NCBI GenBank assembly: GCA_963839395.1
Contig: CAWIUW010000015.1
Location: 333,104-397,103 of the forward strand
Direction of reading: 5' to 3'
DNA from: an uncultured Actinomycetota bacterium
GTDB taxonomy: Bacteria; Actinomycetota; UBA4738; HRBIN12
DNA length: 64,000 nucleotides
Part shown: piece by piece, positions 1 to 62,195 of the stretch
Layout of the letters: every line of letters begins with the position of its first letter
How positions within the stretch are numbered: position 1 is the stretch's first letter
The notes under the pieces: model-generated
Seen by the model: only the letters and a program-made list of their open reading frames with translations
Database searches by the model: none
What the model was told of the DNA's origin: nothing
Translations under genes and position numbers: made by a program

Positions 1-529
1 GGCCGCCATCGACGTCGCCGACGAGGATCAGGAGGATCCCTTGGGTATGGATCGCCATCGCTATCAGGTCCGGGTCGCGGAAACGCCGGCTCAACTCCAC
101 CGCTCGCTCGACGAGGTCTTGCGCCCGGGCCAGGTCGCCGCTGTAGCGGGCGACGGTCGCCTCCACGATCAACAGGAACCCATGACCAGCGCCCTCGGGC
201 ACGTCCTCGGCGTGCCGCCGGGCCTTCATCAACCAGCCGGCTCCCACCGCGGGGTCGCCTCGGGTGAAGTGATCGATGCTCAGGCGTGCTGCCATCGTGG
301 CCGCGTGCTCGGCATCGCCGCCCGCGACGGAAGCGGCGTAGGCGCGCTGCCGCGCCGCGGTCGATTCGTCTGTCTTCGAGAGCCACCACGCCGCATCGGC
401 GAAGGCTTCCAGGTCGTGGGGCGATAGTTCGGATGGATCCACCGCGGCGAGCTCATCGTAGGCCTCGGCCCACGACTCCCGCGCGACGGCATCTCGGCCC
501 CGTTCGATGTCAGCCGTGCGCTCTGCCAC
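1..529 (-). CDS. hypothetical helical-repeat (TPR-like) protein, N-terminal part; gene runs off the window start
   Basis: The minus-strand frame is open from 559 down to position 1, with diverse composition (..DLEAFADAAWWLSKTDEST..GWLMKARRHAEDV..LIAMAIHTQGILL). The first GTG is at 529. The overlapping plus ORF 41..427 has R/G/P-rich antisense-type composition. Confidence 0.4.
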   Translation of the reverse strand, partial: MAERTADIERGRDAVARESWAEAYDELAAVDPSELSPHDLEAFADAAWWLSKTDESTAARQRAYAASVAGGDAEHAATMAARLSIDHFTRGDPAVGAGWLMKARRHAEDVPEGAGHGFLLIVEATVARYSGDLARAQDLVERAVELSRRFRDPDLIAMAIHTQGILLILVGDVDGG

Positions 530-761
530 GCGCCATTCCCCCTCGATGGTGTTGCGGCTCTAGCTTAGGCGGAGCCAGCGGGCGGTTCCGAGACCGTCGA
601 GCGATGCCCCGTGGAGCGCAGGATCCGAGCGTCGCAGCCTCCGCCCGGCCGGAGGTACGCTTCTCGCTCCGTCAGGGAGCGCGTCCGCGTCCTGGACCTC
701 CGGCTCTCGCCAGGAAGAGGTGCTGGGGTTGGAGCCTCGCAGGAGCCGATGGACTACAAGG

Positions 762-3185
762 ATGAGTGAGGCTCCGCGACTCCGGAACTGGCGAACCGAC
801 CTGGTCATGTCGATCGCCCTGGGGGTCGCGTACTACCTAGCTGCCCAACTCAGCCTCCGACTCGCCCTCGTGGGGGAGAACATCACTCCGCTCTGGCCTC
901 CCACGGGGATCGCGCTGGTGGGGTTCCTCCTCCGCGGCCGGCGCCTGTGGCCGGGTGTGGCGATCGCTGCGTTCGCCGTCAACCTTCCGATCAGCACCTC
1001 GGGGGTGGCGGCCGCCGTGACGGCGGTCGGGAACACGCTCGCCCCGCTGGCGGCCGCCACCCTGCTGTTGCGCGTGGGATTCCGCCCCCAGCTGGACCGT
1101 CTCCGTGACGCGCTCGCGATCGTGTTCCTCGCCGCGTTGGGAGCCACCATCATCAGCGCCACGGTCGGCGCCACGACGCTGCTGGTCTCGGATGCCATCG
1201 AAGCGAGGGAGTTCTGGGGGGCCTGGTCGGTCTGGTGGGCGGGAGACGCGATGGGGATCCTCGTGGTGGCGCCGTTCCTCCTGACGCTGACGATGATCCG
1301 CTCGCATCCGGTCCCACGAGGGTGGAAGGCCGTGGAAGCGATCGCGCTCGTCGCTCGTGCTGGTCGGGATCTCGACCCTCATCGTCGTGACGGAGCTCCC
1401 GATCCCGTTCCTGCTCTTCCCGGTGCTGGGGTGGGCAGCGTGGCGTTTCCAGCAGCCCGGCGCGGCCCCCGCCGCCCTCGTCGTCTCGCTGTTCGCGACC
1501 TGGGCGGCCGTGGAGAAACGGGGGATCTTCGCCGGCCAGACGCTCTGGGAGCAGATGTTCACGCTCCAGGCGTTCAACGCCACGGTCGCGTTCATGTCCT
1601 TCTTCTTCGCGGCGGTCGTGGGCGAACGCCTCCGATCCCGGCGGGCGCTCGAGGAAGCGGCGGCAGACCTCGAGGAGCGCGTCGAGGTGCGCACGACAGA
1701 ACTCATGATCGCGAACGAGCGTCTGGCGGAGTCGCAGGAGCTCTCGCATCTCGGTTCGTGGGATTGGGACGTGGCGACGGGCGACGTGAACTGGTCCCAA
1801 CGAGATGTACCGGATCCACGGTCTGCGACCCGATTCCCCGATCACGTTCGAGCGCGTCGTCGAGTTCGCGGTGCCCGAGGATCGAGCCCGTATCCAGGCG
1901 AACGTGACGCATGCGATCGAGGAGCGGAGGGAGGTCATCCCGGACATCGAGTATCGGATCGTCCGTGAAGACGGCAGTCACGCGCGTCCTCTACGGGAAG
2001 GGGCGCGCCATCCGATCCACCGACGGTGCCGTGACACGGATGGTCGGGACGGTCCAAGACGTCACCGAGCGACGTGAGTTGGAGCGAGAGCATCGGATCG
2101 CCGACACGCTCCAGCAGGCGTTGCTTCCCGAGCGGCTCCCGCAGCTCGTCGGGATCGGTCTCGCCGCCCGGTACGTGCCCGCCGAAGAGGGCGCGGCTGC
2201 CGGCGGAGACTGGTACGACGTGATCGAGCTCCCCGACGGCCGCGTCGCCCTCGTGATCGGCGACGTCGCAGGCCACGGCACGGAGGCGGCGAGCGTCATG
2301 GGGCAGGTGCGGATGGCCGTGCGCGCCTTCAGCCTCGAGGGGCATCCCCCGAGGTTCGTGGTCGAGCGCGTGCACGACCTCCTGCGGTCCCTCTACGAAG
2401 GCGAGCAGATGGTGACGATGCTGTACCTCGTCGTGGACCCCACGACGTGGGAGGCCACGATGGTGAACGCCGGGCATCCGCCGCCTCTGTTGCTCGATGC
2501 GGCCGGCGGTGCGACCTATCTCGCGGGTCCGACCGGGTTGCCCGTCGGCCTGAACTGGAGCCTTCCGTACGAGGAATCCACGGCCCTGCTCCGGCCCGGA
2601 GCGACGCTCGTGTTGTTCACCGACGGCCTCGTCGACCGCCGAGACGTCGCCGTCGAGCAGGGCCTGGAACGACTCCTCGAGGCCGCAACGAACGGGGCCG
2701 GTGCAGACATCGATGACCTCTGCGGAGGGTTGCTCGAGACCTTGGTCCCCGCCGACGCCTCCGATGACGTCGCGATCCTCGCCGCTCGGTTCGATGCCGT
2801 TCAGGAGCGGCTCGTCCTGCACATCCCGGCGGACCCCGCGAAGCTCCGAGCCGTCCGTCGCAACATCGGCAGGTGGCTCTCCGGCCATGACGTGCCGCAG
2901 CAGGATGCGGACGACATCCTGCTTGCCAGCTCGGAAGCATGTGCGAACTCGATCGAGCACGCCTACGGTCCGGGTGAAGGATCCGTGGACATCGAGGCGA
3001 TCGCCCAGAACGGTGAGATCACGATCATCGTCCGTGACACGGGTCGATGGAGAGCGGCGCGCAACGGAGACCGGGGCCGAGGGTTGCCGCTCATCGAAGC
3101 GTGCATGGATTCATGCGACTTCACCCGCGGTCACGAAGGGACCGAGCTGCGCATGCGACGACGGGTCCCCAGGGCCACCGGATGA
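762..3185 (+). pseudogene. MASE1-PAS-PP2C (SpoIIE/RsbU-type) phosphatase-HATPase (RsbW-like) sensor, broken by three +1 frame shifts (near 1350, 1800 and 1972); may be assembly indels
   Basis: Four consecutive ORFs in frames 0/1/2/0 translate to a contiguous MASE1 membrane domain (ITPLWPPTGIALVGFLL..), a PAS domain (LGSWDWDVATGDVNWSQ / MYRIHGL..PEDRARI), a PP2C domain (GGDWYDVIELPDGRVALVIGDVAGHG) and a HATPase_c domain (GRGLPLIEACMDS). An AAGGA sits upstream of the ATG at 762. Confidence 0.7.
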
Positions 3186-3550
3186 GCGATCTCGCCACGA
3201 TCGTCTTCGATCGACACGACGACATCGTGGTCGGCGCCCTGTCGGGCGAGATCGACCTGTCCAACGCGATGGAGCTCGAAGGCGTGATCTCCGATGCCGT
3301 GCCCAACACCGTGCGGGGTCTGGTACTGGACCTTTCAGGACTCACCTACCTCGACAGCGCGGGGGTTCGATCGTTGATCTCGCTGGCCGGAAGGCTGCGG
3401 TGGCGAGGCCAGGAGCTCGTGCTCGCCGCGCCACCGGACGCTCGGTGCCGGCGCGTGCTGTCGCTGGCTGGGGTCGGCACCACGATCCCGATCGAAGCCA
3501 CCTTGCCTGAAGCGCGGTCCCAACTCCGCGATCGCGAGCCTCCCACGTAG
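3182..3550 (+). CDS. STAS-domain anti-sigma factor antagonist (SpoIIAA/RsbV-like)
   Basis: MSDLATIVFDRHDDIVVGALSGEIDLSNAMELE..LDLSGLTYLDSAGVRSLI. The start ATG overlaps the upstream stop (ATGA). Confidence 0.8.
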   Translation: MSDLATIVFDRHDDIVVGALSGEIDLSNAMELEGVISDAVPNTVRGLVLDLSGLTYLDSAGVRSLISLAGRLRWRGQELVLAAPPDARCRRVLSLAGVGTTIPIEATLPEARSQLRDREPPT

Positions 3551-3623
3551 GTCGGCGAGGGGCGCGACACGAGCCCTTCTCGGAACGATGCGATGATGCC
3601 CCCTCGAACCATGGGAGGTCACC

Positions 3624-4427
3624 GTGCCCTTCGCGCGGAACGATCTGGACGCTGCTCGCGTGTACTTCGAGGACGATGGCGGAGATGGCGTCCCCGTCGC
3701 GATCCTGGGCGGCTTCCTCGACCCGGTCGACCTCGTCCGAGGCGCTCCGATCGCCAGGTCGTTGCAGGAGCTCCCCGATGAATTCCGCCTGATCTACATC
3801 GATCATCGAGGGCACGGTCGAAGCGACAAGCCCCACGCGGATCGGGCTTACGTGATGCCCATACGGGTAGGAGATGTGGTGGCCGTCCTCGACGACCTCG
3901 GCATCGAGCGATCGCACTTCATCGGCATCTCCTGGGGCGCGAGACTTTGCTTCGGGATCGCGGAACATGCGCCCGAGCGGATCCACTCCCTGGTGACGAT
4001 CGGGCAGCAGCCCTACGCGATCGACCCGGACGGCCCGCTCGCCAGCATCGTCTCGGAGGCGTTTGCCGCCTCGAGGGAGCAGGGGATCGGAGCGCTCGTC
4101 GAGGCGTTCGAGGCGATCGCCGGACGGTATCCGGACGCCGTCCGGGAGACCTACCTCGCGTGCGACGCGGCTGCGATGCGGGCCGCGTGGCGCTCCGCGA
4201 TGGATGAGGGAGCGGTGAGCGAAGACCTCGGTTCATGGGACGTCCGCTGTCTGATCTGCGTCGGCCAGGACGACCGTGACTTCTTCGAGCAGGCGAAGCG
4301 GGCGGCGGAGGAGATCCGGAACGCGGAGTTCCTTCCGATCGGAGACACCGACCATCTGGGTGTGGACACGGCTGCGATCGATCCCGTGCTCCCCGCGGTC
4401 CTTCGCACCCTGCGCGAGACGAACTGA
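3624..4427 (+). CDS. alpha/beta-hydrolase fold protein
   Basis: 267-aa ORF with a GISWGA nucleophile-elbow-like motif and hydrolase-fold composition. Confidence 0.75.
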   Translation: MPFARNDLDAARVYFEDDGGDGVPVAILGGFLDPVDLVRGAPIARSLQELPDEFRLIYIDHRGHGRSDKPHADRAYVMPIRVGDVVAVLDDLGIERSHFIGISWGARLCFGIAEHAPERIHSLVTIGQQPYAIDPDGPLASIVSEAFAASREQGIGALVEAFEAIAGRYPDAVRETYLACDAAAMRAAWRSAMDEGAVSEDLGSWDVRCLICVGQDDRDFFEQAKRAAEEIRNAEFLPIGDTDHLGVDTAAIDPVLPAVLRTLRETN

Positions 4428-4431
4428 CTCG

Positions 4432-4516
4432 TGCGAGAGGGGGGATTCGAACCCCCACGCCCTTTCGGGCACCGGCTCCTAAGGCCGGCGCGTCTGCCGG
4501 GTTCCGCCACTCTCGC
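4432..4516 (-). tRNA. tRNA-Leu (anticodon UAG), type II with long variable arm
   Basis: Cloverleaf folded by hand. Acceptor GCGAGAG/CTCTCGC, anticodon loop CTTAGGA, 15-nt variable arm, T-arm GGGGGTTCGAATCCCCC. No encoded CCA. Confidence 0.85.
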
Positions 4517-4566
4517 GCCAACCAAGGGTAGACCCTCGTGGACGGCGAAGCCCGCCGCGCGACATC

Positions 4567-5352
4567 ATGAACGCGATGCCACGCCGCCTCCTGCTCTTCG
4601 CCGTGACGGCCACCCTGGCCGCATGTGGGGGAGGAGCGACGGCGCCGGCGGACGTGACCCCACCGGCGGTCGCGACACCACGCTCCCGGCCGAGGCCGCC
4701 CGCCGATTTCCAGGCGTCCAGGCTGCTCGCGCGCGGCGGGACGCTCGTCGCCCTCGCGCGCGAGTCGGTACTCGGGATCCATGCGGCGCCGGGGACGGAA
4801 CGTCCGTACATGGGCCTCGACGCCGCGAATCCATGGGGGCAGCCCCTCCGGCTCCTCGTGGTCCGCGGCGCGAACGACGAGGACGGCGACGTTTGGCTCC
4901 GCATCCAGCTCCCGATCTGGCCGAACGGCCAGGCGGGCTGGGTCGCCGCCTCCGACGTGCGACTCGCCGAGGCCGACGAACGCGTCGTCGTCGATCTCTC
5001 CGAGCGGAGGCTCGTGAGGCTCCGCGAGGGCAAACCGGTCGCCCGCGTCGAGGTCGCCATCGGTTCGGCCGCGACGCCCACTCCGCCCGGGCGCTACTTC
5101 GTATGGGCGAAGGTCCGGACCGACCGCCCCTCCGGACCGTACGGGAGCTTCATCCTCGGGCTCTCCGGGTTCTCCGAAGAGATCGAGCCGTGGACGGAGT
5201 GGCCAGGTCAGCCGCGACTCGCGATCCACGGGACCGACGACCCGGCCGATGCGGGACACGCCGTGAGCAAAGGGTGCGTGCGTGTCCTGAACTCACTGCT
5301 CGGAGGGCTTCGCGACGTGCCGATGGGGACTCCCGTCCTCATCCAGCCGTAG
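4567..5352 (+). CDS. L,D-transpeptidase (YkuD domain) lipoprotein
   Basis: Signal peptide with lipobox (TLAACGGG). C-terminal HGT..S.GCVR catalytic motif. Confidence 0.8.
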   Translation: MNAMPRRLLLFAVTATLAACGGGATAPADVTPPAVATPRSRPRPPADFQASRLLARGGTLVALARESVLGIHAAPGTERPYMGLDAANPWGQPLRLLVVRGANDEDGDVWLRIQLPIWPNGQAGWVAASDVRLAEADERVVVDLSERRLVRLREGKPVARVEVAIGSAATPTPPGRYFVWAKVRTDRPSGPYGSFILGLSGFSEEIEPWTEWPGQPRLAIHGTDDPADAGHAVSKGCVRVLNSLLGGLRDVPMGTPVLIQP

Positions 5353-5399
5353 ACGCCAGCCTCCCGACGCAACTCCTCCGAGGGTCGTCCCTCCTCCAC

Positions 5400-5449
5400 T
5401 TGACACCTGATTCGAGGCACGGTAGTTTACCGTCTAGTTATTTAACTAG
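5400..5449 (+). promoter_or_regulatory. putative sigma-70-type promoter (TTGACA-17-TAGTTT) followed by a 16-bp perfect palindrome CTAGTTATTTAACTAG, a likely ArsR-family operator
   Basis: AT-rich island in a GC-rich background, immediately upstream of the AGGAGG RBS of the ArsR gene. ArsR/SmtB repressors bind inverted repeats that overlap their own promoters. Confidence 0.45.
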
Positions 5450-5457
5450 GAGGTTGA

Positions 5458-5859
5458 GTGGTCACACAGTCGGATCGGCTCGATCGCACGTTCGCCGCAC
5501 TTTCGGATCCCACGCGGCGAGCGATCCTCGGCCGTCTCGCCACAGGTGAGGCCTCCGTCACCGAGCTGGCGGAGCCGTTCGACATGAGCATGCCGGCGGT
5601 CTCGAAGCACTTCAAGGTGCTCGAGCGGGCCGGGCTCATCGTGCGCGGGCGGCAGCGGCAGTGGCGGCCCGCCCGACTCGAAGCCGAGCCGCTCAAAGAG
5701 GTCGCCGACTGGACCGAGCGGTACCGGCGCTTCTGGGAGGAGCGCTACGACCGGTTGGACGACTACCTGGAAGAGCTCCAGGGACGAGGAAAGGGCCCAA
5801 CGGCCCAAGGAAAGGCCAAAGGAAAGGGAAAGGGGAAGAACGATGAGCGCAAGCGATAG
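5458..5859 (+). CDS. ArsR/SmtB-family transcriptional regulator
   Basis: Winged-helix motif LSDPTRRAILGRLATGEASVTELAEPFDMSMPAVSKHFKVLERAGLI. AGGAGG RBS. Confidence 0.85.
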   Translation: MVTQSDRLDRTFAALSDPTRRAILGRLATGEASVTELAEPFDMSMPAVSKHFKVLERAGLIVRGRQRQWRPARLEAEPLKEVADWTERYRRFWEERYDRLDDYLEELQGRGKGPTAQGKAKGKGKGKNDERKR

Positions 5860-6337
5860 GAACCAGCTCGTGACGACGACTCCGTCGGATCGGGAGATCG
5901 TGATGACCCGGGTCTTCGACGCACCGCGCGACCTCGTGTTCGAGGCGCACACCTCGTGCGAACACATGTCGAAGTGGTGGGGCCCGAGGAAGTACGAGGT
6001 CGTGGACTGCGACATCGACTTCCGCCCGGGAGGCGCGTGGCGGGTCGTGCACCGGGGTCCCGACGGCGGAGAGATCACGTTCTTCGGTGAGTACCTCGAG
6101 ATCGTCCGGCCAGAACGCATCGTCTGGACGTTCGGGTTCGACGACAACCCCGGCGGTCCGGAGACCTACACGTTCGAGGAGCATGACGGCAAGACCACGG
6201 TGACGAGTAGCGCGGTCTTCCCTTCGAAGGAGATGCGAGACGAGGTGCTCGGGTCCGGGATGGAGTCCGGAGCCATCGAGACGTACGAGCGGCTGGATGA
6301 GTACCTCGAGGTCCTCCGGGGGCGCCCGACGAGCTGA
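5843..6337 (+). CDS. SRPBCC / AHSA1 (activator of Hsp90 ATPase homolog)-domain protein
   Basis: 164 aa. ArsR-AHSA1 gene pairs are common. The start overlaps the ArsR stop. Confidence 0.75.
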   Translation: MSASDRNQLVTTTPSDREIVMTRVFDAPRDLVFEAHTSCEHMSKWWGPRKYEVVDCDIDFRPGGAWRVVHRGPDGGEITFFGEYLEIVRPERIVWTFGFDDNPGGPETYTFEEHDGKTTVTSSAVFPSKEMRDEVLGSGMESGAIETYERLDEYLEVLRGRPTS

Positions 6338-6427
6338 CGAGAGGCTCGGGAGAACGCGCCACTGCCTAGCGCGGCATGGCACGGAGGAGTCCGGGCCGGC
6401 CATCCCCGGACGGTTATCGTTCGCACC

Positions 6428-9400
6428 ATGACGCGCTGCGCCGCCTGCGGGGCGGGCAACCCCGAGGGCGCGAGGTTCTGCAATGCCTGCGGAGAGCGCT
6501 TGGATGCGCCCCCCGCGTCCGGAACGCAGTCCGGCGAACGACGCGTGGTCACGATGCTCTTCTGCGACGTACGCGGATCGACCGCGATGGCTGAGGAGCT
6601 CGACCCCGAGGAGTGGACCGACGTCATGAACGAGGCGTTCGCCCACCTCATCGCGCCGGTCGTTCGACACGAGGGCACGGTGGCCCGTCTCATGGGCGAC
6701 GCGATCCTCGCCTTCTTCGGTGCGCCCACCGCCCACGAGGACGACCCGCAGCGCGCGGTGATGGCAGGGCTCGAGATCGTCGCCTCGATCGCCGCGCTCC
6801 GCGAGAAGGTCGCCCGGGAGCGAGGGCTCGACCTGAACGTCCGCGTCGGTATCAACACCGGCCCTGTCGTCGTGGGCGACGTGGGCTCGGAGCTGAAACA
6901 GGAGTACTCGGCGATGGGTGACGCCGTGAACGTCGCCGCCCGCATGGAGCAGACCGCGGAGCCCGGCTCCGTGCAGATCACGGAGGACACCTACCGGCTC
7001 ATCGCCGACCTCTTCGAGGTGGAGGCGCTGGGCGGCGTCGAGCTCAAGGGGAAACGCCGTCCCGTGGAGTCCTATCGGGTGCTCGGTCGCCTGGACGCTC
7101 CGTGGACCGTTCGCGCTGCTCGGCGCCTTGACGCGCCGCTCGTGGGACGTGAAGACGAGATGCGCGTGATCCGCGCCGCCCTCGAGGGCGCTCGCGAGGA
7201 TCGCGGACGCGTGCTGCTCCTGTGCGGCGACCCCGGTCTGGGCAAGAGCCGGTTGATCGAAGAGGCCAACGCGATCTGGTCGGAGCTGGAGCCCGGCGAC
7301 GATCGCCGCTGGGATTTCTGGCGGTGCGTCCCCTACGACTCGATGCAGCCGTACGCGCAATACCGCCGACTGATCAGCGAGCGCGCCGGCGTCAGGGAGA
7401 CGGACGCGGCCGAGACGGTGCGGATGAAGATCGCGGACCTGATGCGGGCGATCGCTCTCCCGGGTTGGGAAGAGACGAGCACACGGGTCGCGCGGGCGCT
7501 CCTCGGTGTGGAGCTGCCGGACGAGCCGCCGCTGGAAGGCGAGGAGTTCCAGCGAAAGGCCACGGAGCTCGTCGTCGGCTCGACGGTCGCCCAGGGGGGA
7601 CGACGCCTGATCGTCTTCGAGGACCTGCACTGGTGCGACCATGCCTCGCTCGACCTGGTCCGGGCGACGACCGAGCTGGTCGTGGACGCGCCGATCGTCG
7701 TCCTGATCTCGTTCCGTCCCGACCGCGAGGCCGTCTCGTGGGGGTTGCGCGAGTGGGTCGAAACCGATCTGGCGGAGCACGCGATCGTGCTCGACCTGGA
7801 GCCGCTCACGGCGGGGGAGAGCGACGAGCTCATCGGCGCCTTCCTCCCGGTCCCGGGGATGACCGAGGAAGACCGCCGCCGGATCCTCGGCAAGACGGAG
7901 GGCAACCCCCTTTTCCTCCAGGAGGTGGCGCGGGCGCTGATCGACGGCGGCCTCGTCGAGCGCGCGAACGGCGGGTGGCGGATGACCGGGGACGCGGCGG
8001 AGATCGCGATCCCCGACACGATCCAGAGCCTGATCACGGTCGGTCTGGACCGGCTGCCCGGGACGGCTCGCGGGACCGTGCAGACGGCCGCCGTGATCGG
8101 TCGGACCTTCGCCGAGGAGCTGCTGGTCGCCGTGGTCGGCCGGCCGGAGGTCCGCGAGGATCTGGACGAGCTGGTGCGCCGCGACCTGATCCGGGTGTCG
8201 GAGGACGGCGTGCAGGGCGAGTTCACGTTCCGGCACGCACTCACGCAGGAAGCCGCGTACGGCACGCTCCTGGCGAAGCATCGGAAGGCCACGCACCGCC
8301 GGGTCGCGGAGGTGCTCGAAGAGACCGCCCGAGAGCGCCTCGAGGAGGTCGCGCCGCTGCTCGTCCGGCACTTCTCCGAGGCCGGCGAGGACGAGCCGAC
8401 CCTCACCTACTCGGCGATGGCCGGAGACGCCGCGGCGCGCCTCCACGCGAACGCCGAAGCCGAGGCCCACTACCGAACGGGGATCGACGTGGCGCGCCGG
8501 ATCGAAGCGCCGCCGTCGCTCCTCCGGACGATGTACGAGCGGCGGGGCAGCGCGCTGGAGCTGCTCGGGCGCTACGACGACGCGATCGCGAACTACGAGG
8601 AGATGCAGGCCGAGGCCGTGACGCGAGGTGACGAGGCGATGGAGCTGGCCGCCAGCTCGATGATCGCGCTCCTGTACTCGACGGCGACGCCGAAGTTCGA
8701 TCCGCCGCTGGGACGTCGACTGTCGGAAGAGGCGGTCGTGATGGCGCGCCGGATCGGGGACCGTGCAGCCGAGGCGCGTGCCCTCTGGAACATCGTGGTG
8801 GCGAACGTCTACGGCGGAGGAGACGCTTCCCGAGCTGTGGAGGCGGGCGAGGCCTCCCTGGCGATCGCGCGCGAGCTGGGCGAGCGCGAACAGGTCGCGT
8901 TCACCCTGAACGATGTGACCCGTGCGTACATGTCGCGCGGCGACTTCACGACGGCTGCCGAACGCCTGGCCGAGGCACGTGAACTCTGGGAAGAGCTCGA
9001 TAACCGCCCGATGCTCGGCGAGAATCTCACGGTCGGCAGCGCGATGCACATGCTCCACGGCGACTTCGAGGCCGCGCTCGCCGACGCGGGACACGCCGCC
9101 GAGATCTCCGCCTCGATCGACAACGCGTGGGGTGAGTCGCACGCCCTGATCACGGTCTACCGCGTCGAGCTCGAGCTCGGGCGTCTCGGAGCGGCGATGG
9201 ACACGATCGAACGAAGCATGGAGCTCGGAGAGCGGGGTGGCTTCGCCTACGCGGGGATCGCCACGCGAGCCGATCTGGGGCGGCTGATCGCCTATCTCGG
9301 AGACGGTGAACGGGGCCTCGCCCTGGCCGACGAGTCGATCGAGGTCGCGCTCGAGCGCGTTCCTCCGGCTGCTTCCATCTCGCACGTTGCGCGCGCGAAC

Positions 9401-9934
9401 GCGTTGATCGCGCTCGGCAGGCTCGGGGAGGCGCACCCGCCTCTGGACCAGGTGGACCTGATGATGCTCCCCGAGCCCGATCGGACGTTCCTGATGGTCG
9501 CGTGGCACACGACGCGTTCGCGCCTCGCGCTGGAGGAGGGCGACGTCGACGAGTCGGAGGCGATCGCTCGGGGGCTCCTCGTCGATCTCAGGAAGAACGG
9601 AGTTCGGGTCCTCCAGTCCGAGGCGCTCGTCGCTCTCGCGCGCGCCCATATGGCGGCGGGACGGGACGAGGAGGCTGGCGCCGAGCTCGCTGAGGCGATC
9701 GAGCTCGCGGAGGAGCTGGGCGAACGCCGCGTGCTCTGGGAGGCACTCGCATGCTCCGCCGATCTTCACACCCGGAGAGGAGCCGAGCCGGAGGCGGCCG
9801 ATCTCCGTCGCCGAGCGCGCGCGATCGTCGGGGAGATCGCGGCAGGGGTGTCCGACCCGGAGCTCCGCCGACGATTCCTCGCTCGAGACGACGTCCGCGA
9901 CCTGGAAGACCGCTCCAGATTCGAGGAGCGCTAG
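6428..9934 (+). CDS. multidomain regulator: N-terminal zinc ribbon + class III adenylate/guanylate cyclase + AAA/STAND NTPase + TPR repeats
   Basis: [19 protein letters not shown] zinc ribbon. Cyclase motifs [43 protein letters not shown]-loop [10 protein letters not shown]. Long TPR-like C-terminus. 1168 aa. Confidence 0.85.
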
Positions 9935-10791
9935 ACGAAGAGCGGCGTCAGGGAGCGGCGCCGCACCAGTTGCTCCATGCGCTCGTCGCTCGGGCGCTCG
10001 CCGGCGGACCGCTCGGCTGCCGCCAGCACGTGCGGCAGGAGCTGCACGTCGCCGACCGTGTTGAGGAACACGCCCTCACGGCTGAGCACCCAGTGGACCG
10101 CCAGGTCGATATCTGCCGGATCGGTCAGCGGCTCGTACCACGTGGACGCGGTCTGCGGACGACCGTCCCAGGGCGCGAGCGCGATCGACTTGATCGTCTG
10201 TACGGCGACCCCGCGCTCCGCGCACATCGTGGCCAGGGCCTCGAACTCCGCCGCGTAGCGTCCGTCCTGCAGCTGGCGGAAGTTGTAGGGGAGCAGCACC
10301 GAGTCGAACGCGAACCGCTCGAGTGCGCGGCGGTGCATGGCCGCGATCGAGAGCCCATGCCCGGTGACGCCGATGAAGCGAACGATCCCCTCTTGTCGGG
10401 CTTCGACGGCTGCCTCCAGCGCGCCACCCTCGCGCAATGCGAACTCCCACTCGATGACGTCGACGAGGTTGTGCAGCTGAAGCAGATCGATGTGATCGAC
10501 ACCCAACCGCTCGAGTGACCGGTGGAGGTCCTCTTTCGCGCTCTTGTAGTCCCGTCCATCCGTCTTTGTGGCGAGGAAGAACTCGTTCGGGTGCCTCTTG
10601 AGCCACGACGCGATCCGCAGCTCGGAATCGCCGTAGGAAGCGGCGGTGTCGATGTGATTCACGCCGTGCTCGAGGAGGAGATCGAGCGTCTGCTCGGCGT
10701 CCGCGTGCGAAACGTCGCTCAGCGCCGCTGCACCGAAGATCGTACGGGTGCTCTCGTGGCCGGTGCCACCGAACGGCGCTTTCGCGATCAC
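9931..10791 (-). CDS. aldo/keto reductase family oxidoreductase
   Basis: 286 aa, typical AKR composition ([25 protein letters not shown]). Confidence 0.8.
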
Positions 10792-10807
10792 ATCGTGAGC
10801 CTATCCG

Positions 10808-11488
10808 TCACCTCACGGTGGGTGCTCGTTGGGTCAGGTATGCCTCGAGACGATCCGCCAGCTCCTTCGGACGGCTGAGAGCGGGGGTGTGTCCGCCGTC
10901 GATCTCGTCCGGCGTGATGCCCAAGCGCTCCTGGGCGACACGGCGGAGGAAGGAGGCCGGGAACACGCGGTCGTCTCGACAGAGCAGGACCCGTACGGGC
11001 ACCTCAGGCCACGCCTCGAGCGGGAGTGGCTCGTGCATGCGAGCCTCGGACTGCGCCCGTCCCCTCCTCAGCGCCTCGGACGCCAATCCCGGCGGCACAT
11101 CCTGATAGAACCACGCGATCTCGTCGTCGTAGCGATCGTGGACTTCCTCTTCGTACCTCGTGTTCCTCCAGTAGTCCGCGGGTGCCTCTCCGGGAGCGGG
11201 GATCATCGGTGCGACCAAGACGAGCAGGTCCACCGCGACGCGATCGCAGACGAGCGGAGCGGTGAAGCCACCCATCGACTGCGCGACCACGACCAGATCC
11301 GTCCGGATGCCGATCGAGTCGATCACGGCGTCGGCATACTCGGGCATCCCGGCCGCGTCGTCTTCACACGGAAGATCTGGGGCGACGGTGTCGTGGCCTC
11401 GCGCGCGCAGCTCGGCCTCCACCAGGTGCCAATACCAACCGACATCGCCGGCGCCGTGTATCAGGACGAACGTGGCCATCGTCGTCAT
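10808..11488 (-). CDS. alpha/beta-hydrolase fold protein
   Basis: MATFVLIHGAGDVGWYW..VVVAQSMGG nucleophile elbow. Confidence 0.75.
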   Translation of the reverse strand: MTTMATFVLIHGAGDVGWYWHLVEAELRARGHDTVAPDLPCEDDAAGMPEYADAVIDSIGIRTDLVVVAQSMGGFTAPLVCDRVAVDLLVLVAPMIPAPGEAPADYWRNTRYEEEVHDRYDDEIAWFYQDVPPGLASEALRRGRAQSEARMHEPLPLEAWPEVPVRVLLCRDDRVFPASFLRRVAQERLGITPDEIDGGHTPALSRPKELADRLEAYLTQRAPTVR

Positions 11489-11501
11489 GCGACCTCTCGA
11501 G

Positions 11502-11546
11502 TGGGCCCTCGGGGGACTCGAACCCCGAACCTCCGGATCAAGAGTC
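11502..11546 (-). repeat. degenerate copy of the 3' half of tRNA-Lys (anticodon arm through acceptor end), about 41/45 identity to the intact gene 650 bp away
   Basis: gtgggccctcgggggactcgaaccccgaacctccggatcaagagtcc versus tgggcccccggggactcgaaccccgaacctgcggattaagagtcc at 12159-12203. Confidence 0.6.
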
Positions 11547-11712
11547 CCAGAAACGGCGTTCGGAACAGTCCTGGTCTATCTGGGTCTCTTCCATTCCAGT
11601 AGGTCAGGATGTCCGTCGGCCGACCACCAACCCGGAACGTCCGGGAGCGGTTGTACCTTCACCGATGGACGGGCCGCTGCCGGTCTGGTGACGCCGAGTC
11701 TCGGAGGACGCG

Positions 11713-12126
11713 ATGAAGATGAAGGGACAACTGAACGTGAAGACCCCGGCCGAATACATCGCCGCCGTGGACGACAAGCGCCGGTCCGACATAGCGGCCC
11801 TCGATGCGCTGATCCGCAAGCACGCGCCGAAGCTCGAGCCGGTCATCATGGGCGGCATGCTCGGCTACGGGCCATTCCACTACCGCTACGCGAGCGGCCG
11901 CGAGGGCGACGCCTGCAAGCTCGCGATCGCCAGCAACGCCTCGTACATCTCGCTGTACTGCTTCGCCTCCGACGCGAAGGGCTACGTCGCCGAGCGGTAC
12001 GTCGATCGGCTCCCGAAGGCCGGCATCGGCAAGACCTGCGTGATGATCAAGAAGCTCGCGGACCTCGACGAGAAGGCGCTCGTGGCGCTCATCAAGGAGA
12101 CCGCGAAGATGGGCCTCGTCGCCTGA
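11713..12126 (+). CDS. DUF1801 (YdhG-like) domain protein
   Basis: 137 aa with good codon bias. N-terminal KTPAEYIAAVDDKRRSDIAALDALIRKHAPK is typical of the family. Confidence 0.65.
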   Translation: MKMKGQLNVKTPAEYIAAVDDKRRSDIAALDALIRKHAPKLEPVIMGGMLGYGPFHYRYASGREGDACKLAIASNASYISLYCFASDAKGYVAERYVDRLPKAGIGKTCVMIKKLADLDEKALVALIKETAKMGLVA

Positions 12127-12155
12127 GCCCGAGCGACGTCGGAGCGGCGGTCATG

Positions 12156-12232
12156 TGGTGGGCCCCCGGGGACTCGAACCCCGAACCTGCGGATTAAGAG
12201 TCCGTTGCTCTGCCGGATTGAGCTAGAGGCCC
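12156..12232 (-). tRNA. tRNA-Lys (anticodon CUU), with encoded CCA
   Basis: GGGCCTCTAGCTCAATCCGGCAGAGCAACGGACTCTTAATCCGCAGGTTCGGGGTTCGAGTCCCCGGGGGCCCACCA folded by hand. Confidence 0.9.
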
Positions 12233-12368
12233 GCGGCAGTCTAGCAACCGTCGGGCGTCACCGGGCTCGCGAGGCCATGTTTGCTCGCATCCCAGAATGG
12301 GGATATCTGGCGCGACGGAACGCTGATGCCGCCATGGAGGCGGCCGCATAGCGAAGGAGGCGTTCACC

Positions 12369-12542
12369 GTGAGCATGACGCCAGAGCATCACCACCACGA
12401 TGAGGCAACCCCGGTCCGCGACCCCGAGGGCGGAAGCGGCCTCGTGGGATACGCGGCGATCAAGTACATCGCGATCGTCGCGATCGTGATCGCGATCCTG
12501 GTCTTCCTGGGGTGGTACCTGATCCCCGCGTTGACCGACTGA
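12369..12542 (+). CDS. small (57 aa) His-rich single-pass membrane protein, hypothetical
   Basis: GAAGGAGG RBS 7 nt upstream of GTG. VSMTPEHHHHDEATPVRDPEGGSGLVGYAAIKYIAIVAIVIAILVFLGWYLIPALTD. Followed by a strong hairpin. Below the 60-aa ORF-track cutoff. Confidence 0.4.
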   Translation: MSMTPEHHHHDEATPVRDPEGGSGLVGYAAIKYIAIVAIVIAILVFLGWYLIPALTD

Positions 12543-12576
12543 CCGAAGCCGGCCGACCGGAACGACGAGAACGTGA

Positions 12577-12613
12577 GAGGCGGCCGCGGCCCCGAAGGGG
12601 CCGCGGCCGCCTC
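12577..12613. terminator. perfect 17-bp GC-rich stem with GAA loop; candidate intrinsic terminator (possibly bidirectional)
   Basis: GAGGCGGCCGCGGCCCC-GAA-GGGGCCGCGGCCGCCTC, followed by GTCTCTC. Lies between the small ORF (+) and tRNA-His (-). Confidence 0.5.
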
Positions 12614-12622
12614 GTCTCTCAG

Positions 12623-12697
12623 GGTGACCGAGGGGACTTGAACCCCCAGCCTCCAGGACCACAACCTGGCGCTCTAACCAGTTGAGCTACGGCCACC
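12623..12697 (-). tRNA. tRNA-His (anticodon GUG) with extra 5' G(-1)
   Basis: GGTGGCCGTAGCTCAACTGGTTAGAGCGCCAGGTTGTGGTCCTGGAGGCTGGGGGTTCAAGTCCCCTCGGTCACC. Confidence 0.9.
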
Positions 12698-12763
12698 ACG
12701 TGCTGCACCAAGCGTACCGGATGCGACCCGGCGGGTTGCCTCGGAAAGCCTGGTCGGGCATCA

Positions 12764-12779
12764 TTGAACGGCCGTTCAA
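12764..12779. promoter_or_regulatory. 16-bp perfect palindrome TTGAACGGCCGTTCAA 20 bp upstream of the aminotransferase start; candidate operator shared with 62158-62173
   Basis: The identical 14-bp core TGAACGGCCGTTCA recurs upstream of the saccharopine dehydrogenase-like gene at 62158. Confidence 0.4.
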
Positions 12780-12799
12780 ACAAGCGAGCCATCCCGGGG

Positions 12800-14185
12800 G
12801 TGGACGACCTGGCAACCAAGGAGACGATCGACTTCGACCTCGAGCTGGTCGACCGCTTGATCGCCGAGGAAGAAGCGTCGCTCGAGCCGAAGCACCGGGC
12901 CTCGATCGAGTACCGCGACGTGGCCGCGCGACATGTCGCCGGCGGGGTCGCGTCCTCGTGGCAGGCCTCGCCCCCACATGCGGTCTTCATCGACAGGGGA
13001 GCGGGCAGTCACATCTGGGACCTCGACGGGAACGAATACGTCGACTATCACCTCGGGTACGGCGCCATGATCGTCGGACACGCGCACCCCAAGGTCGTCG
13101 AGGCGATCGAGAAACGGGCCCGCCTCGGGACGCACTTCGCCCAGCCGACCGCTCAACTCCACGAGATCGGCGAGAACGTCGCGGAACGGTTCGGTCTGCC
13201 GCTCTGGCGGTTCTGCAACTCCGGCACGGAGGCGACACTCGAGGCGGTCCGGTTGATGCGGGCGAACACCGGCAGGGACATGATCGTGAAGATCGAAGGG
13301 ACCTACCACGGTCACCATGACTCGCTGATGTTCTCCGTCGCGCCGGACCCGGAGCTGATCGGCCCGCGCGAGCATCCCGTCACGGTGCCGCAGGCGATGG
13401 GGATCCCGCAGGCTTTCGCCGATCTGGTGCGTGTCGTGCCGTTCAACGACCTGGCCGAGGCCGAGCGGGCGTTCGCGGAGAACGACGGTCGTGTCGCCGG
13501 GATGATCGTGGAGCCGGCGATGATGAACTGCGGCGTCGTGCTGCCGCAGCCCGGCTACCTGGAGGGACTGCGCGAGCTCTGTCACCGACACGGGGCCTAC
13601 CTCGCCTTCGATGAGGTGAAGACCGGGGGGACGATCGCGTGGGGTGGCGCCGTGGAGGCGTTCGGCGTCCAGCCCGACATCGTCACGCTCGCGAAGGCGT
13701 TCGGCGGCGGTGTCCCGTGCGGGGCGATCGGCGCGACCGAGGAGCTCTTCGGGCCGGTCCTTCGAGGCGACCACGACATCGCCGGGACGTTCAACGGGAA
13801 CCCGCTCACGATGGCCGCGGCGAAGGCGACCTTGCTCGAGGTCCTCACACCCGATGCCTACGCGCGTCTGCACGAGGTCGACCGGGCGCTGAAGGACGGC
13901 CTCCGACCGATCATCGACCGGTATCGGCTCCCCGCGTACGTGACGGGGATCGGCGCGAAGGGCTCGGTCACGTACTCCCCGACGGAGGTCCGCGAATACC
14001 GGGACACGATCGGGATCGACGAGCGGATCAGCTACCTGGCGTGGCTGATCCAGCAGAACCGAGGCGTGTTCAAGGCGCCGTGGGCGAAGCAGGAGACCTG
14101 GACGCTCTCGGTCGCCCACTCCGACGACGATGCCCAGCGCTACGTCGACAACTTCGAGGAGTTCGCGGCCGCCGTCGCGAGCTGA
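12800..14185 (+). CDS. class III (PLP-dependent) aminotransferase, GSA-aminomutase/omega-aminotransferase-like, paralog 1
   Basis: HLGYGAMIVGHAHPKVVEAI, NSGTEATLEAVRLMR, DEVKTGG..(PLP lysine region), FNGNPLTMAAA. The start could be GTG 12800 or TTG 12764. Confidence 0.85.
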   Translation: MDDLATKETIDFDLELVDRLIAEEEASLEPKHRASIEYRDVAARHVAGGVASSWQASPPHAVFIDRGAGSHIWDLDGNEYVDYHLGYGAMIVGHAHPKVVEAIEKRARLGTHFAQPTAQLHEIGENVAERFGLPLWRFCNSGTEATLEAVRLMRANTGRDMIVKIEGTYHGHHDSLMFSVAPDPELIGPREHPVTVPQAMGIPQAFADLVRVVPFNDLAEAERAFAENDGRVAGMIVEPAMMNCGVVLPQPGYLEGLRELCHRHGAYLAFDEVKTGGTIAWGGAVEAFGVQPDIVTLAKAFGGGVPCGAIGATEELFGPVLRGDHDIAGTFNGNPLTMAAAKATLLEVLTPDAYARLHEVDRALKDGLRPIIDRYRLPAYVTGIGAKGSVTYSPTEVREYRDTIGIDERISYLAWLIQQNRGVFKAPWAKQETWTLSVAHSDDDAQRYVDNFEEFAAAVAS

Positions 14186-17076: not shown

Positions 17077-19918
17077 CTAGGGGAGGGCCACCGACCAGGC
17101 ACCCCGGCCGTGCGTGGCCGCGTAGAGCACCCGGCCCGCGTCCGACGTGTCGATCGTGAGGCCGTATGTGGCGACCGGCGGAAGCCCGGCGGCTGCCTCG
17201 ACCCACACGTTGCTGCCGTCCTCGAGTCGCAGGACGCTGAAGTCCGTCGACACGTAGACGTCACCCGTCTGGTCGTCGAACGCCACGTCGGTGATCGGCT
17301 GGTCGCCGATGTTGGCACTGATGTCCGTCCAGGTCGCGTTGCCCGTGCCCGGATGGAACGTCACCTCGAACACATGACCCGGCTGGCCGGGTGTGTACGC
17401 CTCGTACCCGGAGAACGAGATGAACGCGTGGTTCGAGTTCGTCGGGTCGATGGAGATCCCGCTCACGAACCGCTCGGGCTGTGCGGCCGAATCGATCCTC
17501 CGGTAGCTCACCTGCTGCCGGGGCGCGTTCGCGTTCTTCGAGACGAACACGCGACCGACCCGGGTCCCGGCCCAGAGCGTGCCGGTGTCGCCGCCGGACC
17601 GCTCGACCGCCACGACGTAGTTCCCGAGCTTGTCGCGGCCGTAGAACGTCGACGTCAGGTTCCCGCTCGTGCCCGAACCGATCGGCTTCCAGTTCCCGCA
17701 GGCGTGCTGGAAGGTGCCCGTGTACTCGTTGCAGGTCTCCTCGAGGAAGGCCTGCTCGCCACCGTTGTTCGAGGTGCGCCAGACGCTCTCCATCCCGGTG
17801 AACATCGCACCGCCCACGACCGGATCGGTGATGAGAGGCACGTAGAACGATCGCTGCTCGTTGCTCTTCTGGAGCGGGTCCCCGATCCAGTTCCAGCTGC
17901 CGGGAGCCCCGTCGTCGAAGCTCACGTCGGGGGTCGCGTCGAAGTAGGTGTGGACGCGGATCGAGGTGTCCTCGGCTCCGTAGCCCGACTGGCCGCCGTC
18001 TCCGTCGATCGTCTCCAACCATTCGGGGCTGCCGGAGAAGAGCCAGGTGCCGTTGTCCTGCGTGCCACCCATCAGGTCGTTGGTGGGGTCCTCCGGGTTC
18101 ACGGACAGGCTCTGGAACTGGATCGTGGCGAGCCCGTCGTTCAGCGTGGTCAGCAGCTGGGGCACCGCGCTGAGCCAGTTCTCGCAGTCCGTCAGGTCCG
18201 CACCCTCGATCGGCCTCGAGGCGCACTCGCCAGTGTCGTCCACGTAGGTCCCGTTCGTGCGGATCACGCCGCCGTCTGACCCGACGATCGCGATGTTGGG
18301 GTTGGACGCGAAGACGATCGCGTGCTGGTCGGGGTGCATGCCGAGCGGCGGGTTCTGCGCGTCGTTCGTCATGTCGGTGAACGAGACGCCCGCATCGGTC
18401 GAGCGCATCACCGCGCGCCCGTTCGACCGGCCGTTGCCACCGAACACCGGCAGCTCGTCGTAGTTCATCGCGCCGCCGATCCAGACCGTGTTGGGTTGCC
18501 CCGGCGGCGACTCCACGAACATGTCGTACCCGCACTGGAAATGGCAGAAGAAGTACGAGCCGAAGCCGTCGGTGCCGTTCGCCGGGTTGGACAGCAGCGT
18601 CCAGCCACCGTTCGTGCCCCCCGTGAGCAGGTCACCGGCGGGCACGTTGGCGTCGTCGGTGCGCCAGAGGACCGAGTAGCCCAGGTCGTCCGACGAGTCG
18701 CCCAAGTAGATGCGCGTGTCGGACCCCAGGTCGACCAGGTCGAACTCCGTCCGGTCACCGAACGTGTCGGCCGGGTGGAACGTCTGGAAGACCTGGCGGA
18801 ATTGCGTCGTCCCTTCGTTCGCGGGTGACCGACGCCACAGCCCGTAGCCGAACAACGCGACGTAGACCGTCTCCGGGTCGTTCGGGTCGAGCAGGATCCT
18901 GTTCACGCCACCCTGGAACCAGTCCACGCCTCCGGAAGCGGGTGCCGGGTTCGGGTCACGCGAGAAGACGAGGTCGAACGTCGCGCCGCCGTCGGTCGTC
19001 TCGTACAGACCGAGGGTGGGCGCGTCCGGCGGGGTCCTCCGACCGCCGTTGGCCGAGGAGGAGCCGTGACGCGCCACGGCAGTGCCGATGAAGTAGTGGT
19101 CGGGGTCGGTCGGGTCGATCGCGATCGAACCGATCGAGCGGTCCCTCGCGATCGGCACGCTCGCCGGCACCAGGGTCCACGGGCCCCCGTCGGTCGACGT
19201 GAAGAGGCCGACACCGGCCTCCGAGTCGCCCGAGCCGTTGGGTTCGCCCGTTCCCGCGAAGATCCTGTTCGGGTCGTTCGGGTCGACCGCGAGGGAGCCG
19301 ATCGAGTTCGACGTGATCCCCGCGTCGAGCGGTTGCCAGGCGGGCTCGGCTGCGAGCGCGTCCGGCGCGTGCCACACGCCTCCGCCCGCCGCACCGACCC
19401 AGATCTCGCAGTCGCCCGGCACGCACGTCGGTGAGATCGCCATCGATGTCACGCGACCGGAGTTCTGTGTCGCTCGATCCGTGTAGGTCGCGATCGCAGG
19501 AACCGTCGGCGTCACGGGGCCGAGCTCTTGCCATCCGGCAACGAGCGGGGCGCTCAGACCGGTGCGTGCCGACGGGATCGCCGCGGCGGCGGCGATGGCC
19601 TTCTTGACTTGCTTGAAGCGGATCGTTGCCCGGGGGATCGCGCGGTTCTCGTAGGCCTCAGCGGCCGGACCCCCGAAGCGCTCGGCCTCGCCGCTCTCGC
19701 CGATCTTCTCGCGGACCACGAGGATCGGAAGTTGCCGGTCGCCGCGCAGCGCGATCTCGCGGAGACTCGCCTCCTCCTCGCCCTCGCCTCTCGCGCTCAC
19801 CCGCTCGGTTCTGGAACTGGCTGGGTGTGCTCGTGCTCCATATCACCACGGCGAGCAGCGTGAGCGCGGCGAGAACGGTGATGGCGGTCCGGACGTGGGT
19901 GCGGAGGCGCTTCGACAT
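17077..19918 (-). CDS. secreted BNR/Asp-box repeat protein (sialidase/glycosyl-hydrolase-like beta-propeller); signal peptide in a different frame from the body (apparent indel near 19810-19830)
   Basis: Repeated S-x-D-x-G-x-(T/S)-(W/F) motifs (FTSTDGGPWT, YETTDGGATF, MRSTDAGVSF). The N-terminal MSKRLRTHVRTAITVLAALTLLAVVIW signal peptide ORF (19918 downward) joins the 907-aa body only after a 1-nt shift. Confidence 0.7.
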
Positions 19919-22493: not shown

Positions 22494-22582
22494 CTGCAGC
22501 CTCCTCTGATCCTCAACCTAGTCACTTGAGCGCCGCTCGTCAGAGATCTCGCTCGGTCAGCTACTTCAGGGCGCTCGTCACG

Positions 22583-22655
22583 CGCGCCGGGCAGGATTCG
22601 AACCTGCGACCTGAGGATTAGAAGTCCCCTGCTCTATCCCCTGAGCTACCGGCGC
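22583..22655 (-). tRNA. tRNA-Arg (anticodon UCU)
   Basis: GCGCCGGTAGCTCAGGGGATAGAGCAGGGGACTTCTAATCCTCAGGTCGCAGGTTCGAATCCTGCCCGGCGCG. Confidence 0.9.
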
Positions 22656-23961: not shown

Positions 23962-24054
23962 GACTGGGAAACGGGGCGGATCGACGGGAACCGATGGCAA
24001 TGGTGAGCCCAGCCAAAGGGAGCCGTGACCCGCGGAGATGGCGCTGACGTGAAG

Positions 24055-24128
<74 letters not shown>

Positions 24129-26472: not shown

Positions 26473-26546
26473 CGGGGCGTAGCGCAGCCTGGCAGCGCAC
26501 GTGCTTTGGGAGCACGAGGTCGCGGGTTCGAATCCCGCCGCCCCGA
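26473..26546 (+). tRNA. tRNA-Pro (anticodon UGG)
   Basis: CGGGGCGTAGCGCAGCCTGGCAGCGCACGTGCTTTGGGAGCACGAGGTCGCGGGTTCGAATCCCGCCGCCCCGA. Confidence 0.9.
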
Positions 26547-26549
26547 CCG

Positions 26550-27680: not shown

Positions 27681-27690
27681 CGCGCGAACC

Positions 27691-27999
27691 CTACAGGAGG
27701 GCTCGCGCGACGGCGGTGACCGTCGCGGCGACGACCACGACGACGAGTGGCGGAGCCTTGAAGCCGACGGCGACGCCTCCGGCCGCCACCCCCAGCGCGC
27801 GCTCGTCGAGGACGAGCGCGCGCCCGTCGGCGAACGTGCTGGTCGCCACCAGGGCGGCGAGCAGCGCCGGTGCGAGGAGGACGATCACCCTGTCGAGCTT
27901 CGGAGGTAGCGGTCGACCTCCCAGCAGCACCGGCCCCGCGCCCTTGATCGCGATCGTCGCCGTTCCGACGAGCACCACGACCCACCACGCTTCGCTCAT
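27691..27999 (-). CDS. azlD: branched-chain amino acid transport protein AzlD
   Basis: 102-aa hydrophobic protein. 4-bp overlap with upstream azlC. Confidence 0.75.
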   Translation of the reverse strand: MSEAWWVVVLVGTATIAIKGAGPVLLGGRPLPPKLDRVIVLLAPALLAALVATSTFADGRALVLDERALGVAAGGVAVGFKAPPLVVVVVAATVTAVARALL

Positions 28000-44783: not shown

Positions 44784-44824
44784 GGGCGCGAGTGTAGTCG
44801 GTCGAAGGCTCGCAGTCGGTCGCC

Positions 44825-60588: not shown

Positions 60589-60615
60589 CCCGGGTCCCGT
60601 AGACTAGCCCCCTCG

Positions 60616-62173: not shown

Positions 62174-62195
62174 GGGCGTCGGTACACTCGGCGAC

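Follow-up and report, generated by a model that had tools for sequence, protein, structure and literature searches.

Three extra bases, probably consensus errors, interrupt the sensor gene of a partner-switching operon in an uncultured Actinomycetota bacterium

The stretch of DNA analysed here (hereafter the window) covers 64,000 nucleotides of contig CAWIUW010000015.1 in assembly GCA_963839395.1, has a G+C content of 68%, and contains near its beginning a partner-switching operon of an ordinary kind, made up of two genes and belonging to an uncultured Actinomycetota bacterium from soil. The first gene, located on the forward strand at positions 762..3185, codes for a MASE1 membrane sensor domain, a PAS domain, a SpoIIE-type PP2C phosphatase domain, and an RsbW-type HATPase_c_2 kinase domain, as identified by Pfam, and the second gene codes for a STAS protein. 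As given, the sensor gene contains three extra bases, which raises the question of whether the gene is broken in the organism, whether it is decoded in an unusual way, or whether the fault lies in the assembled sequence. Judging from the sequence, we consider it likely that the assembled consensus is in error at all three breaks, with one base wrongly inserted at each. The errors probably arose where the co-assembled strains differ, and in the living organism the gene is probably intact. The breaks look like errors because the repaired open reading frame (ORF) is intact and has a low ratio of nonsynonymous to synonymous substitution rates (dN/dS), and because the insertions are specific to the window, fall in hypervariable codons, and resemble merged alleles. 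Two further insertions of the same kind in the window, one of them in the essential gene valS, and the split genes in the assemblies of the relatives also make them look like errors.

In the sequence as given, the coding frame follows the path 0 to 1 to 2 to 0 across positions 762-3185, as seen in both the ORF listing and the three-frame translation. Of the MASE1 profile, positions 1-179 match in frame 0 and positions 208-298 in frame 1, the PAS_3 match is located in frame 2, and the SpoIIE (175 bits) and HATPase_c_2 (90 bits) matches are both located in frame 0. A TGA stop codon in frame 0 at positions 1905..1907 closes a product of 381 amino acids (aa). The breaks were placed by a blastn comparison with a syntenic contig of 97% identity (locus L001), which holds an intact gene for a protein of 806 aa (P0001) and in which the gene start at position 10001 is the counterpart of position 762 in the window. 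The first break is an extra C at position 1354 (GTCG[C]TCG, with the inserted base in brackets) in codon 198, which shifts the frame from 0 to 1 and is absent from L001, from two other related loci (L002 and L003), and from 16 further relatives. The second is an extra A at position 1799 (TCCC[A]ACGAG) in codon 346, which shifts the frame from 1 to 2 and is absent from all 20 aligned relatives, and the third is an extra A at position 1976 (GGC[A]GTCAC) in codon 405, which shifts the frame from 2 back to 0 and is absent from all aligned relatives. The three breaks fall within 622 bp. A hidden Markov model (HMM) based on codon-position G+C content and stop codons identified the same three switch points with no prior input. 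The first-pass annotation, which was made from the letters alone, had already proposed three +1 shifts with a net shift of zero at about 1350, 1800, and 1972. It had also concluded correctly that the MASE1 and PP2C-HATPase parts share a frame, as the first part of MASE1, upstream of 1354, and the PP2C-HATPase part, downstream of 1976, are read in frame 0.

A comparison with orthologs had been proposed as a check, and it reveals an uninterrupted frame in the relatives: none of the 18-20 independent relatives contains an extra base at 1354, 1799, or 1976, and P0001 is intact over its 806 aa. This result bears directly on programmed +1 ribosomal frameshifting, or some other form of recoding, at the three sites, an explanation that would fit the observation that all of the shifts are +1 and that their sum returns the reading to the original frame. 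None of about 20 orthologues is shifted at any of the sites and no conserved shift signal was found in them, and the sites have no motif in common and are located in the least conserved codons of the gene. We know of no precedent for three programmed shifts in one gene. Since no orthologue has any of the three shifts, we reject recoding as effectively excluded.

When the three bases are deleted, an ORF of 806 codons with no internal stop is obtained, in which the MASE1 and PAS_3 domains are full-length. The MASE1 domain (PF05231), which spans positions 807..1629 and is interrupted at 1354 in the sequence as given, matches profile positions 1-298 of 299 with 156.6 bits after repair. The PAS domain (PAS_3, PF08447) at 1786..2054, interrupted at both 1799 and 1976, matches profile positions 2-89 of 89 with 52.8 bits after repair. 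The PP2C domain of the SpoIIE/RsbU type (PF07228) at 2232..2792 obtains a score of 174-175 bits over profile positions 1-191 of 192, at a cut-off of 25 bits, and the RsbW/SpoIIAB-type GHKL serine kinase domain of the anti-sigma type (PF13581, HATPase_c_2) at 2823..3158 obtains a score of 88-90 bits, which exceeds the cut-off of 27.4 bits. All four domains are encoded on the forward strand, and no match to a HisKA domain was found in the sensor protein by Pfam. The metal-binding aspartate motifs of the PP2C domain (GGDWYD, GDVAGHG, TDGL, and DDVA) match those of the Mycobacterium tuberculosis protein Rv1364c (PDB 3KE6) residue for residue, and the domain is assigned by its profile match and these motifs to the PP2C/PPM phosphatases of the RsbU/SpoIIE type. 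In the kinase domain, the N-box EACANSIEHAY and the motif RGRGLPL align with Rv1364c, and the G1 box, which reads DTGRW, is degenerate. The Pfam profile matches bear out the MASE1, PAS, PP2C/SpoIIE, RsbW-like HATPase, and STAS assignments of the first-pass annotation.

The positions of the insertions within the gene are also informative. In an alignment of 60 homologues, the codon columns 198, 346, and 405 are placed at the 87th, 97th, and 95th percentiles of variability, with codon 346 sitting between the invariant S345 and E347, and codon 405 following the near-invariant G404. At the first site, the window contains GCTC, where the closest relative contains GTC and most other relatives contain GCC. 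Likewise, at the third site, the window contains AGTC, where the closest relative (L001) contains GTC and most other relatives contain AGC. These two sites look like a consensus that emits both alleles of a polymorphic position. The second site, where the window contains CAAC, reads as CAC with the A doubled, and the CAC allele is present in two related loci (L090 and L095). A mixed-strain pile-up, which we infer to lie behind the merged alleles, can produce the pattern of the first and third sites, which random mutation does not predict. A pattern scan of JGI metagenome contigs over the second site, covering either one or two bases, retrieved seven contigs, all of them uninserted, and all of them at most 85% identical to the window, at which level they are uninformative on its own population. 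In the 13.2-kb alignment of the window with L001, all of the other 22 indels are either intergenic or located no more than 20 nucleotides from a gene start.

The repaired ORF has a dN/dS of 0.18 relative to L001. When L002 and L003 serve as the outgroup, the lineage of the window receives 21 changes, of which 7 are nonsynonymous and 14 are synonymous. All catalytic motifs of the sensor gene are intact, and the gene contains no deletions. As a candidate pseudogene, it is disrupted in frame as given, yet neither relaxed selection nor any other sign of decay was found. If the sensor gene is dead, its death would have been very recent, because of the low dN/dS, the few nonsynonymous changes in the lineage, and the intact motifs.

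Two further frame breaks are found in the window. The valS gene, which codes for valyl-tRNA synthetase and is located on the forward strand at 35433-38094, contains a window-specific extra C that converts CC to CCC at positions 37236-37238. As given, frame 0 of this gene encodes the catalytic tRNA-synt_1 domain, and frame 1 encodes the anticodon-binding domain (Anticodon_1) and the C-terminal arm (Val_tRNA-synt_C). Removal of one C yields a protein of 886 aa, which is the same length as in the intact orthologues in three related loci (L005, L006, and L009). The break in this essential gene points to an assembly error. The second case is a PAS-domain gene on the forward strand at 63453-64000, which runs past the end of the window and contains an extra G that converts GG to GGG at positions 63660-63662. 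When one G is removed, the canonical PAS motif GFDRGELLG is regained, and full profile matches to PAS_9, PAS, and PAS_4 are obtained. The frame-breaking events in the 64 kb are single-base insertions in five cases out of five, with no deletion, and the periodicity HMM identified no frame breaks in the window beyond these five. No common motif, such as a methylation motif, was seen at the five insertion sites by inspection by eye only.

Errors of this type are also seen in the assemblies of the relatives. The nearest relatives come from assemblies with contigs named in the style "contig_NNNN", which contain many split genes, and two of the related loci (L004 and L008) are mostly fragmented. The contig that was used to place the breaks, contig_5242 of ENA ERZ25039547, contains the loci L001 and L007 and is syntenic to the window, with an identity of 96.9% over positions 15-13195 and 98.8% over positions 32718-52995. 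In this contig, valS is split at another place (window-equivalent position 36698), two extra bases split clpX, tig is fused to clpP, and ndk is shortened. Among the related species-representative genomes, several are metagenome-assembled genomes (MAGs) of the Microflora Danica project, as indicated by their MFD isolate names. The assembly of these MAGs relied on Nanopore reads alone and used Flye, followed by a single round of Medaka (PMC12313526), a provenance that applies to the related MAGs, the window itself not being tied to the Microflora Danica project. Long-read assemblies of this kind call for caution when they serve to judge whether a gene is intact. Similarly, since all five events in the window are single-base insertions and two of them are merge-like, frame breaks in this assembly should not be interpreted as pseudogenes or as recoding without a check of the reads. 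The biological weight of the locus is small, and its practical value lies in this warning on frame breaks.

A few observations weigh against consensus errors in an otherwise ordinary operon. There are three breaks within 622 bp of the sensor gene versus about two in the other 61 kb of the window, and the clustering therefore needs a local cause, which would be either a real dying gene, a dip in coverage, or a mixture of strains. The first and the third insertions are located outside homopolymers, which are the classic context of Nanopore errors. As for the function of the operon, the genes examined in the window and in L001-L003 include none that was recognised as coding for a sigma factor. 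The first two of these observations would be accommodated if the insertions represent a genuine and very recent pseudogenisation, with three real insertions, a dead sensor gene, and an orphaned STAS gene, as the breaks are present in the sequence as given, the affected gene is a non-essential signalling gene, and two of the three insertions are not homopolymer events. We nevertheless regard pseudogenisation as unlikely. It would require three indels before any other decay in a gene with a dN/dS this low, with two-thirds of the lineage changes being synonymous and all of the catalytic motifs intact. Bacterial pseudogenes are generally biased towards deletions, whereas all three events are insertions. 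Neither the coincidence with hypervariable codons nor the merging of alleles is expected under random mutation, and the essential valS gene in the same window is broken by the same kind of event. The first-pass annotation had left the choice between local consensus error and active pseudogenisation of the sensor portion. The former is favoured by these results, and a long-standing pseudogenisation is argued against by the selection on the gene and its intact motifs.

The insertions could also be real without silencing the whole protein. In the sequence as given, an ORF of 424 aa at positions 1911-3185 encodes the complete PP2C and kinase domains and retains the ATGA coupling to the STAS gene, as a consequence of the net shift of zero. 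The gene might thus be functionally split into a truncated MASE1 fragment (762-1907) and a soluble, sensor-less PP2C-kinase protein made from an internal start, such as the ATG at 1911, which would act constitutively on the STAS protein. Relatives that match the PP2C-kinase part alone indicate that soluble or differently sensed cores exist. However, the split itself is not seen in any relative, no obvious ribosome-binding site precedes position 1911 on reading the sequence, and the ORF at 1911-3185 would start within the disrupted PAS domain. As every argument for consensus errors also counts against a functional split, we consider it very unlikely. Real and very recent inactivation in a broader sense, including the variant in which the sensor-less PP2C-kinase is made from the ORF at 1911-3185, is given a small but appreciable probability. 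It is somewhat less probable that the insertions are real and that the MASE1-PAS input of the strain was disabled or split very recently, with a sensor-less PP2C-kinase that is still coupled to STAS. If true, this would constitute a natural experiment on the contribution of the membrane sensor to a partner-switching module.

Under the preferred interpretation of consensus errors, the operon would encode a complete signalling module. The STAS gene, for an anti-sigma-factor antagonist, is located on the forward strand at 3182..3550, is intact, and codes for a protein of 122 aa that matches the Pfam profiles STAS (58 bits) and STAS_2 (59 bits). As the first-pass annotation had noted, the gene overlaps with the sensor gene in an ATGA sequence, here located at 3182-3185, in which the ATG start codon of the STAS gene is combined with the TGA stop codon of the sensor gene. 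The overlap is kept in L001 and L002, and a STAS orthologue is present at the same position in L001 (122 aa) as well as in L002 and L003 (120 aa each). An exact look-up of the STAS protein of the window gave no match in the indexed collection of assemblies. Matches of the STAS protein in the PDB include 4QTP, SpoIIAA (1TH8_B and 1TID), and RsfB (8IH8). Ser59 (codon 3356-3358), in the motif LDSAG, aligns with the serine in the DSSG motif of SpoIIAA (1TH8_B), which is the serine phosphorylated in that protein, and Ser59 is thus the predicted phospho-acceptor of the STAS protein.

By homology with Rv1364c and with the RsbU/V/W and SpoIIE/AA/AB systems, the signalling mechanism may be outlined as follows. 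The membrane protein of 806 aa would consist of an N-terminal MASE1 domain, a coiled-coil linker, a PAS domain, a PP2C domain, and a C-terminal RsbW/SpoIIAB-type GHKL kinase domain, and it would be translationally coupled to the single-domain STAS protein via the ATGA overlap. The kinase domain would phosphorylate the STAS protein at Ser59 and the PP2C domain would take the phosphate off, with the balance between the two activities being set by signals received by the MASE1 and PAS domains. The unphosphorylated STAS protein would then bind to the kinase (anti-sigma) domain, or to another RsbW-type protein, and this binding would free a sigma factor of the SigF/SigB type, or some other target, that is encoded elsewhere.

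To assess how common this arrangement is, we used the hand-repaired protein as a query in a protein search, which yielded 2,441 matches at E<=1e-10, with the intact P0001 (806 aa, 97% identity) as the best match. All of the best 120 of the 2,441 matches carry the MASE1, PAS, SpoIIE, and HATPase_c_2 domains, most of them with a length of about 806 aa (about 805-830), and the members of this four-domain family among them are 51-97% identical to the query over the full length. The window copy shares their domain architecture and differs from the family by the three extra bases only. Some sources label members of the family as "MASE1 domain-containing protein" or [quoted passage not shown]. In a scan with one genome per species, at least 578 stretches encode relatives. 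Among the matches listed, these come mostly from Actinomycetota and Solirubrobacterales MAGs and also from the cultured genera Kribbella, Micromonospora, and Actinoplanes, the closest species-representative relative is 85% identical, which suggests that the species of the window is missing from this set, and many of the species-representative relatives match the PP2C-kinase part alone (residues about 435-801). In 72 of 79 related species loci, the kinase domain is followed directly by a STAS gene. The first-pass annotation had described the fused protein beside its STAS substrate as an unusual compact architecture, which is contradicted by these numbers and by the solved core of Rv1364c. The family is plentiful among soil Actinomycetota and seems to be experimentally uncharacterised, as no characterised MASE1-PP2C protein was found in the searchable literature. 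In one of the matches (P0070, 762 aa), MASE1, PAS, SpoIIE, and STAS domains are recorded without HATPase_c_2; this protein could be a genuine STAS-fused variant or an assembly artefact in which two genes are fused.

The neighbourhood of the operon is also shared with its relatives. The neighbours are a divergent TPR (and GerE) regulator, an abhydrolase, a YkuD transpeptidase, an ArsR-type regulator, an AHSA1 protein, and a cyclase-AAA_16-TPR protein. In the closest relatives, the order is sensor, STAS, (abhydrolase), YkuD, ArsR-type HTH, and AHSA1. The N-terminal part of the divergent TPR-repeat regulator is located at 2-559 on the reverse strand, where it is cut by the start of the window, and its counterpart in L002 is a protein of 554 aa with TPR and GerE (LuxR-type) domains. 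The place of this regulator beside the sensor operon is conserved, and a functional link between the two is possible. Further downstream, on the forward strand at 6338-9934, there is a gene for a signalling protein of about 1,170-1,200 aa with a zinc ribbon, an adenylate/guanylate cyclase domain, an AAA_16 domain, and MalT-like TPR repeats. L001 has this gene conserved at the corresponding position, and a second gene of a similar kind is located beside valS in L005 and L009.

Elsewhere in the window, seven tRNA genes were identified with ARAGORN and Rfam. Five are located on the reverse strand, namely Leu-TAG (4431-4516), Lys-CTT (12156-12232), His-GTG (12622-12696), Arg-TCT (22582-22655), and Gly-TCC (24054-24125), and two are located on the forward strand, Pro-TGG (26473-26548) and Ala-GGC (60616-60689). 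No other Rfam family was found above threshold over the whole window, and nothing in this search bears on the sensor locus. An open frame of 921 aa on the reverse strand at 17077-19842 has a very strong coding periodicity (G+C content at third codon positions, GC3, of 0.91) and no Pfam match at E<=0.001. After the tRNA-Ala gene, the reverse strand contains an ORF of 194 aa at 61240-61824 with a signal-peptide-like N-terminus, Ser/Pro-rich repeats (SPSPSETPSPSPDPSPSETP...), and a C-terminal hydrophobic anchor. This ORF lies inside a weakly periodic region (60567-62186), and the surrounding 1.5 kb show little periodicity.

Several other same-strand switches of frame that the periodicity HMM flagged in the window were considered as candidate frameshifts and rejected, as they correspond to gene boundaries. 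These are the boundaries between the genes for an abhydrolase, a membrane protein, and an aminotransferase (14183/15073/15572), DmpA, AzlD, and AzlC (26567-28724), Tag and inositol monophosphatase (30119/30649), tig and clpP (31385/32810), ndk and a beta-lactamase (39354/39790), fabG, fabH, and fabD (43065-45707), RNase E/G and rplU (53852/55101), and nadD, a LytR-family gene, and rsfS (58044-60079).

The operon resembles known partner-switching systems to different degrees. Like the RsbU/RsbV/RsbW and SpoIIE/SpoIIAA/SpoIIAB modules of Bacillus, it combines the activities of a PP2C phosphatase and an HATPase_c_2 serine kinase (anti-sigma) with a STAS antagonist in which the phospho-serine is conserved. 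However, the phosphatase and the kinase are separate proteins in the Bacillus modules, whose operon also includes the sigma factor gene, whereas in the window the two enzymes are fused and there is no adjacent sigma factor gene. OsaC of Streptomyces coelicolor is likewise a multidomain regulator of an actinobacterium, with sensor domains joined to PP2C, and it also bears an RsbW-like kinase domain. Compared by domain content, OsaC differs in its domain order and its set of sensors, and lacks MASE1. Its sensors are GAF and PAS domains, and its PP2C phosphatase starts a SigB-type response (PMC12143880).

The closest similarity is to Rv1364c, which also contains a PAS domain, a PP2C domain, and a GHKL (RsbW-type) kinase domain in one polypeptide. 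In an alignment made with the orthologue P0001, 97% identical to the repaired protein, as the query, the PP2C and kinase core is contiguous with 3KE6 over residues 458-803 of P0001 (E=1.4e-45). In PMC7693655 (see also PMC12143880), Rv1364c is described as a multidomain regulator of the SigF pathway that consists of a sensor, a PP2C phosphatase, a GHKL kinase, and an anti-sigma antagonist, and that binds SigF in vitro. The kinase and the phosphatase are stated there to act on its own STAS domain, which is thereby phosphorylated and dephosphorylated (PMC7693655, citing Greenstein 2009), and the titles cited in the same paper conflict with regard to the kinase, one referring to a loss of activity and another to activity. 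Unlike the protein in the window, Rv1364c is soluble and has its own STAS domain fused at the C-terminus, so that sensor, PP2C, kinase, and STAS form a single chain, whereas the STAS protein is encoded by a separate, coupled gene in the window and its orthologs, and a MASE1 domain is placed ahead of PAS. The operon represents a further instance of a signalling module that is very common in actinobacteria and has a core that is already solved in the form of Rv1364c.

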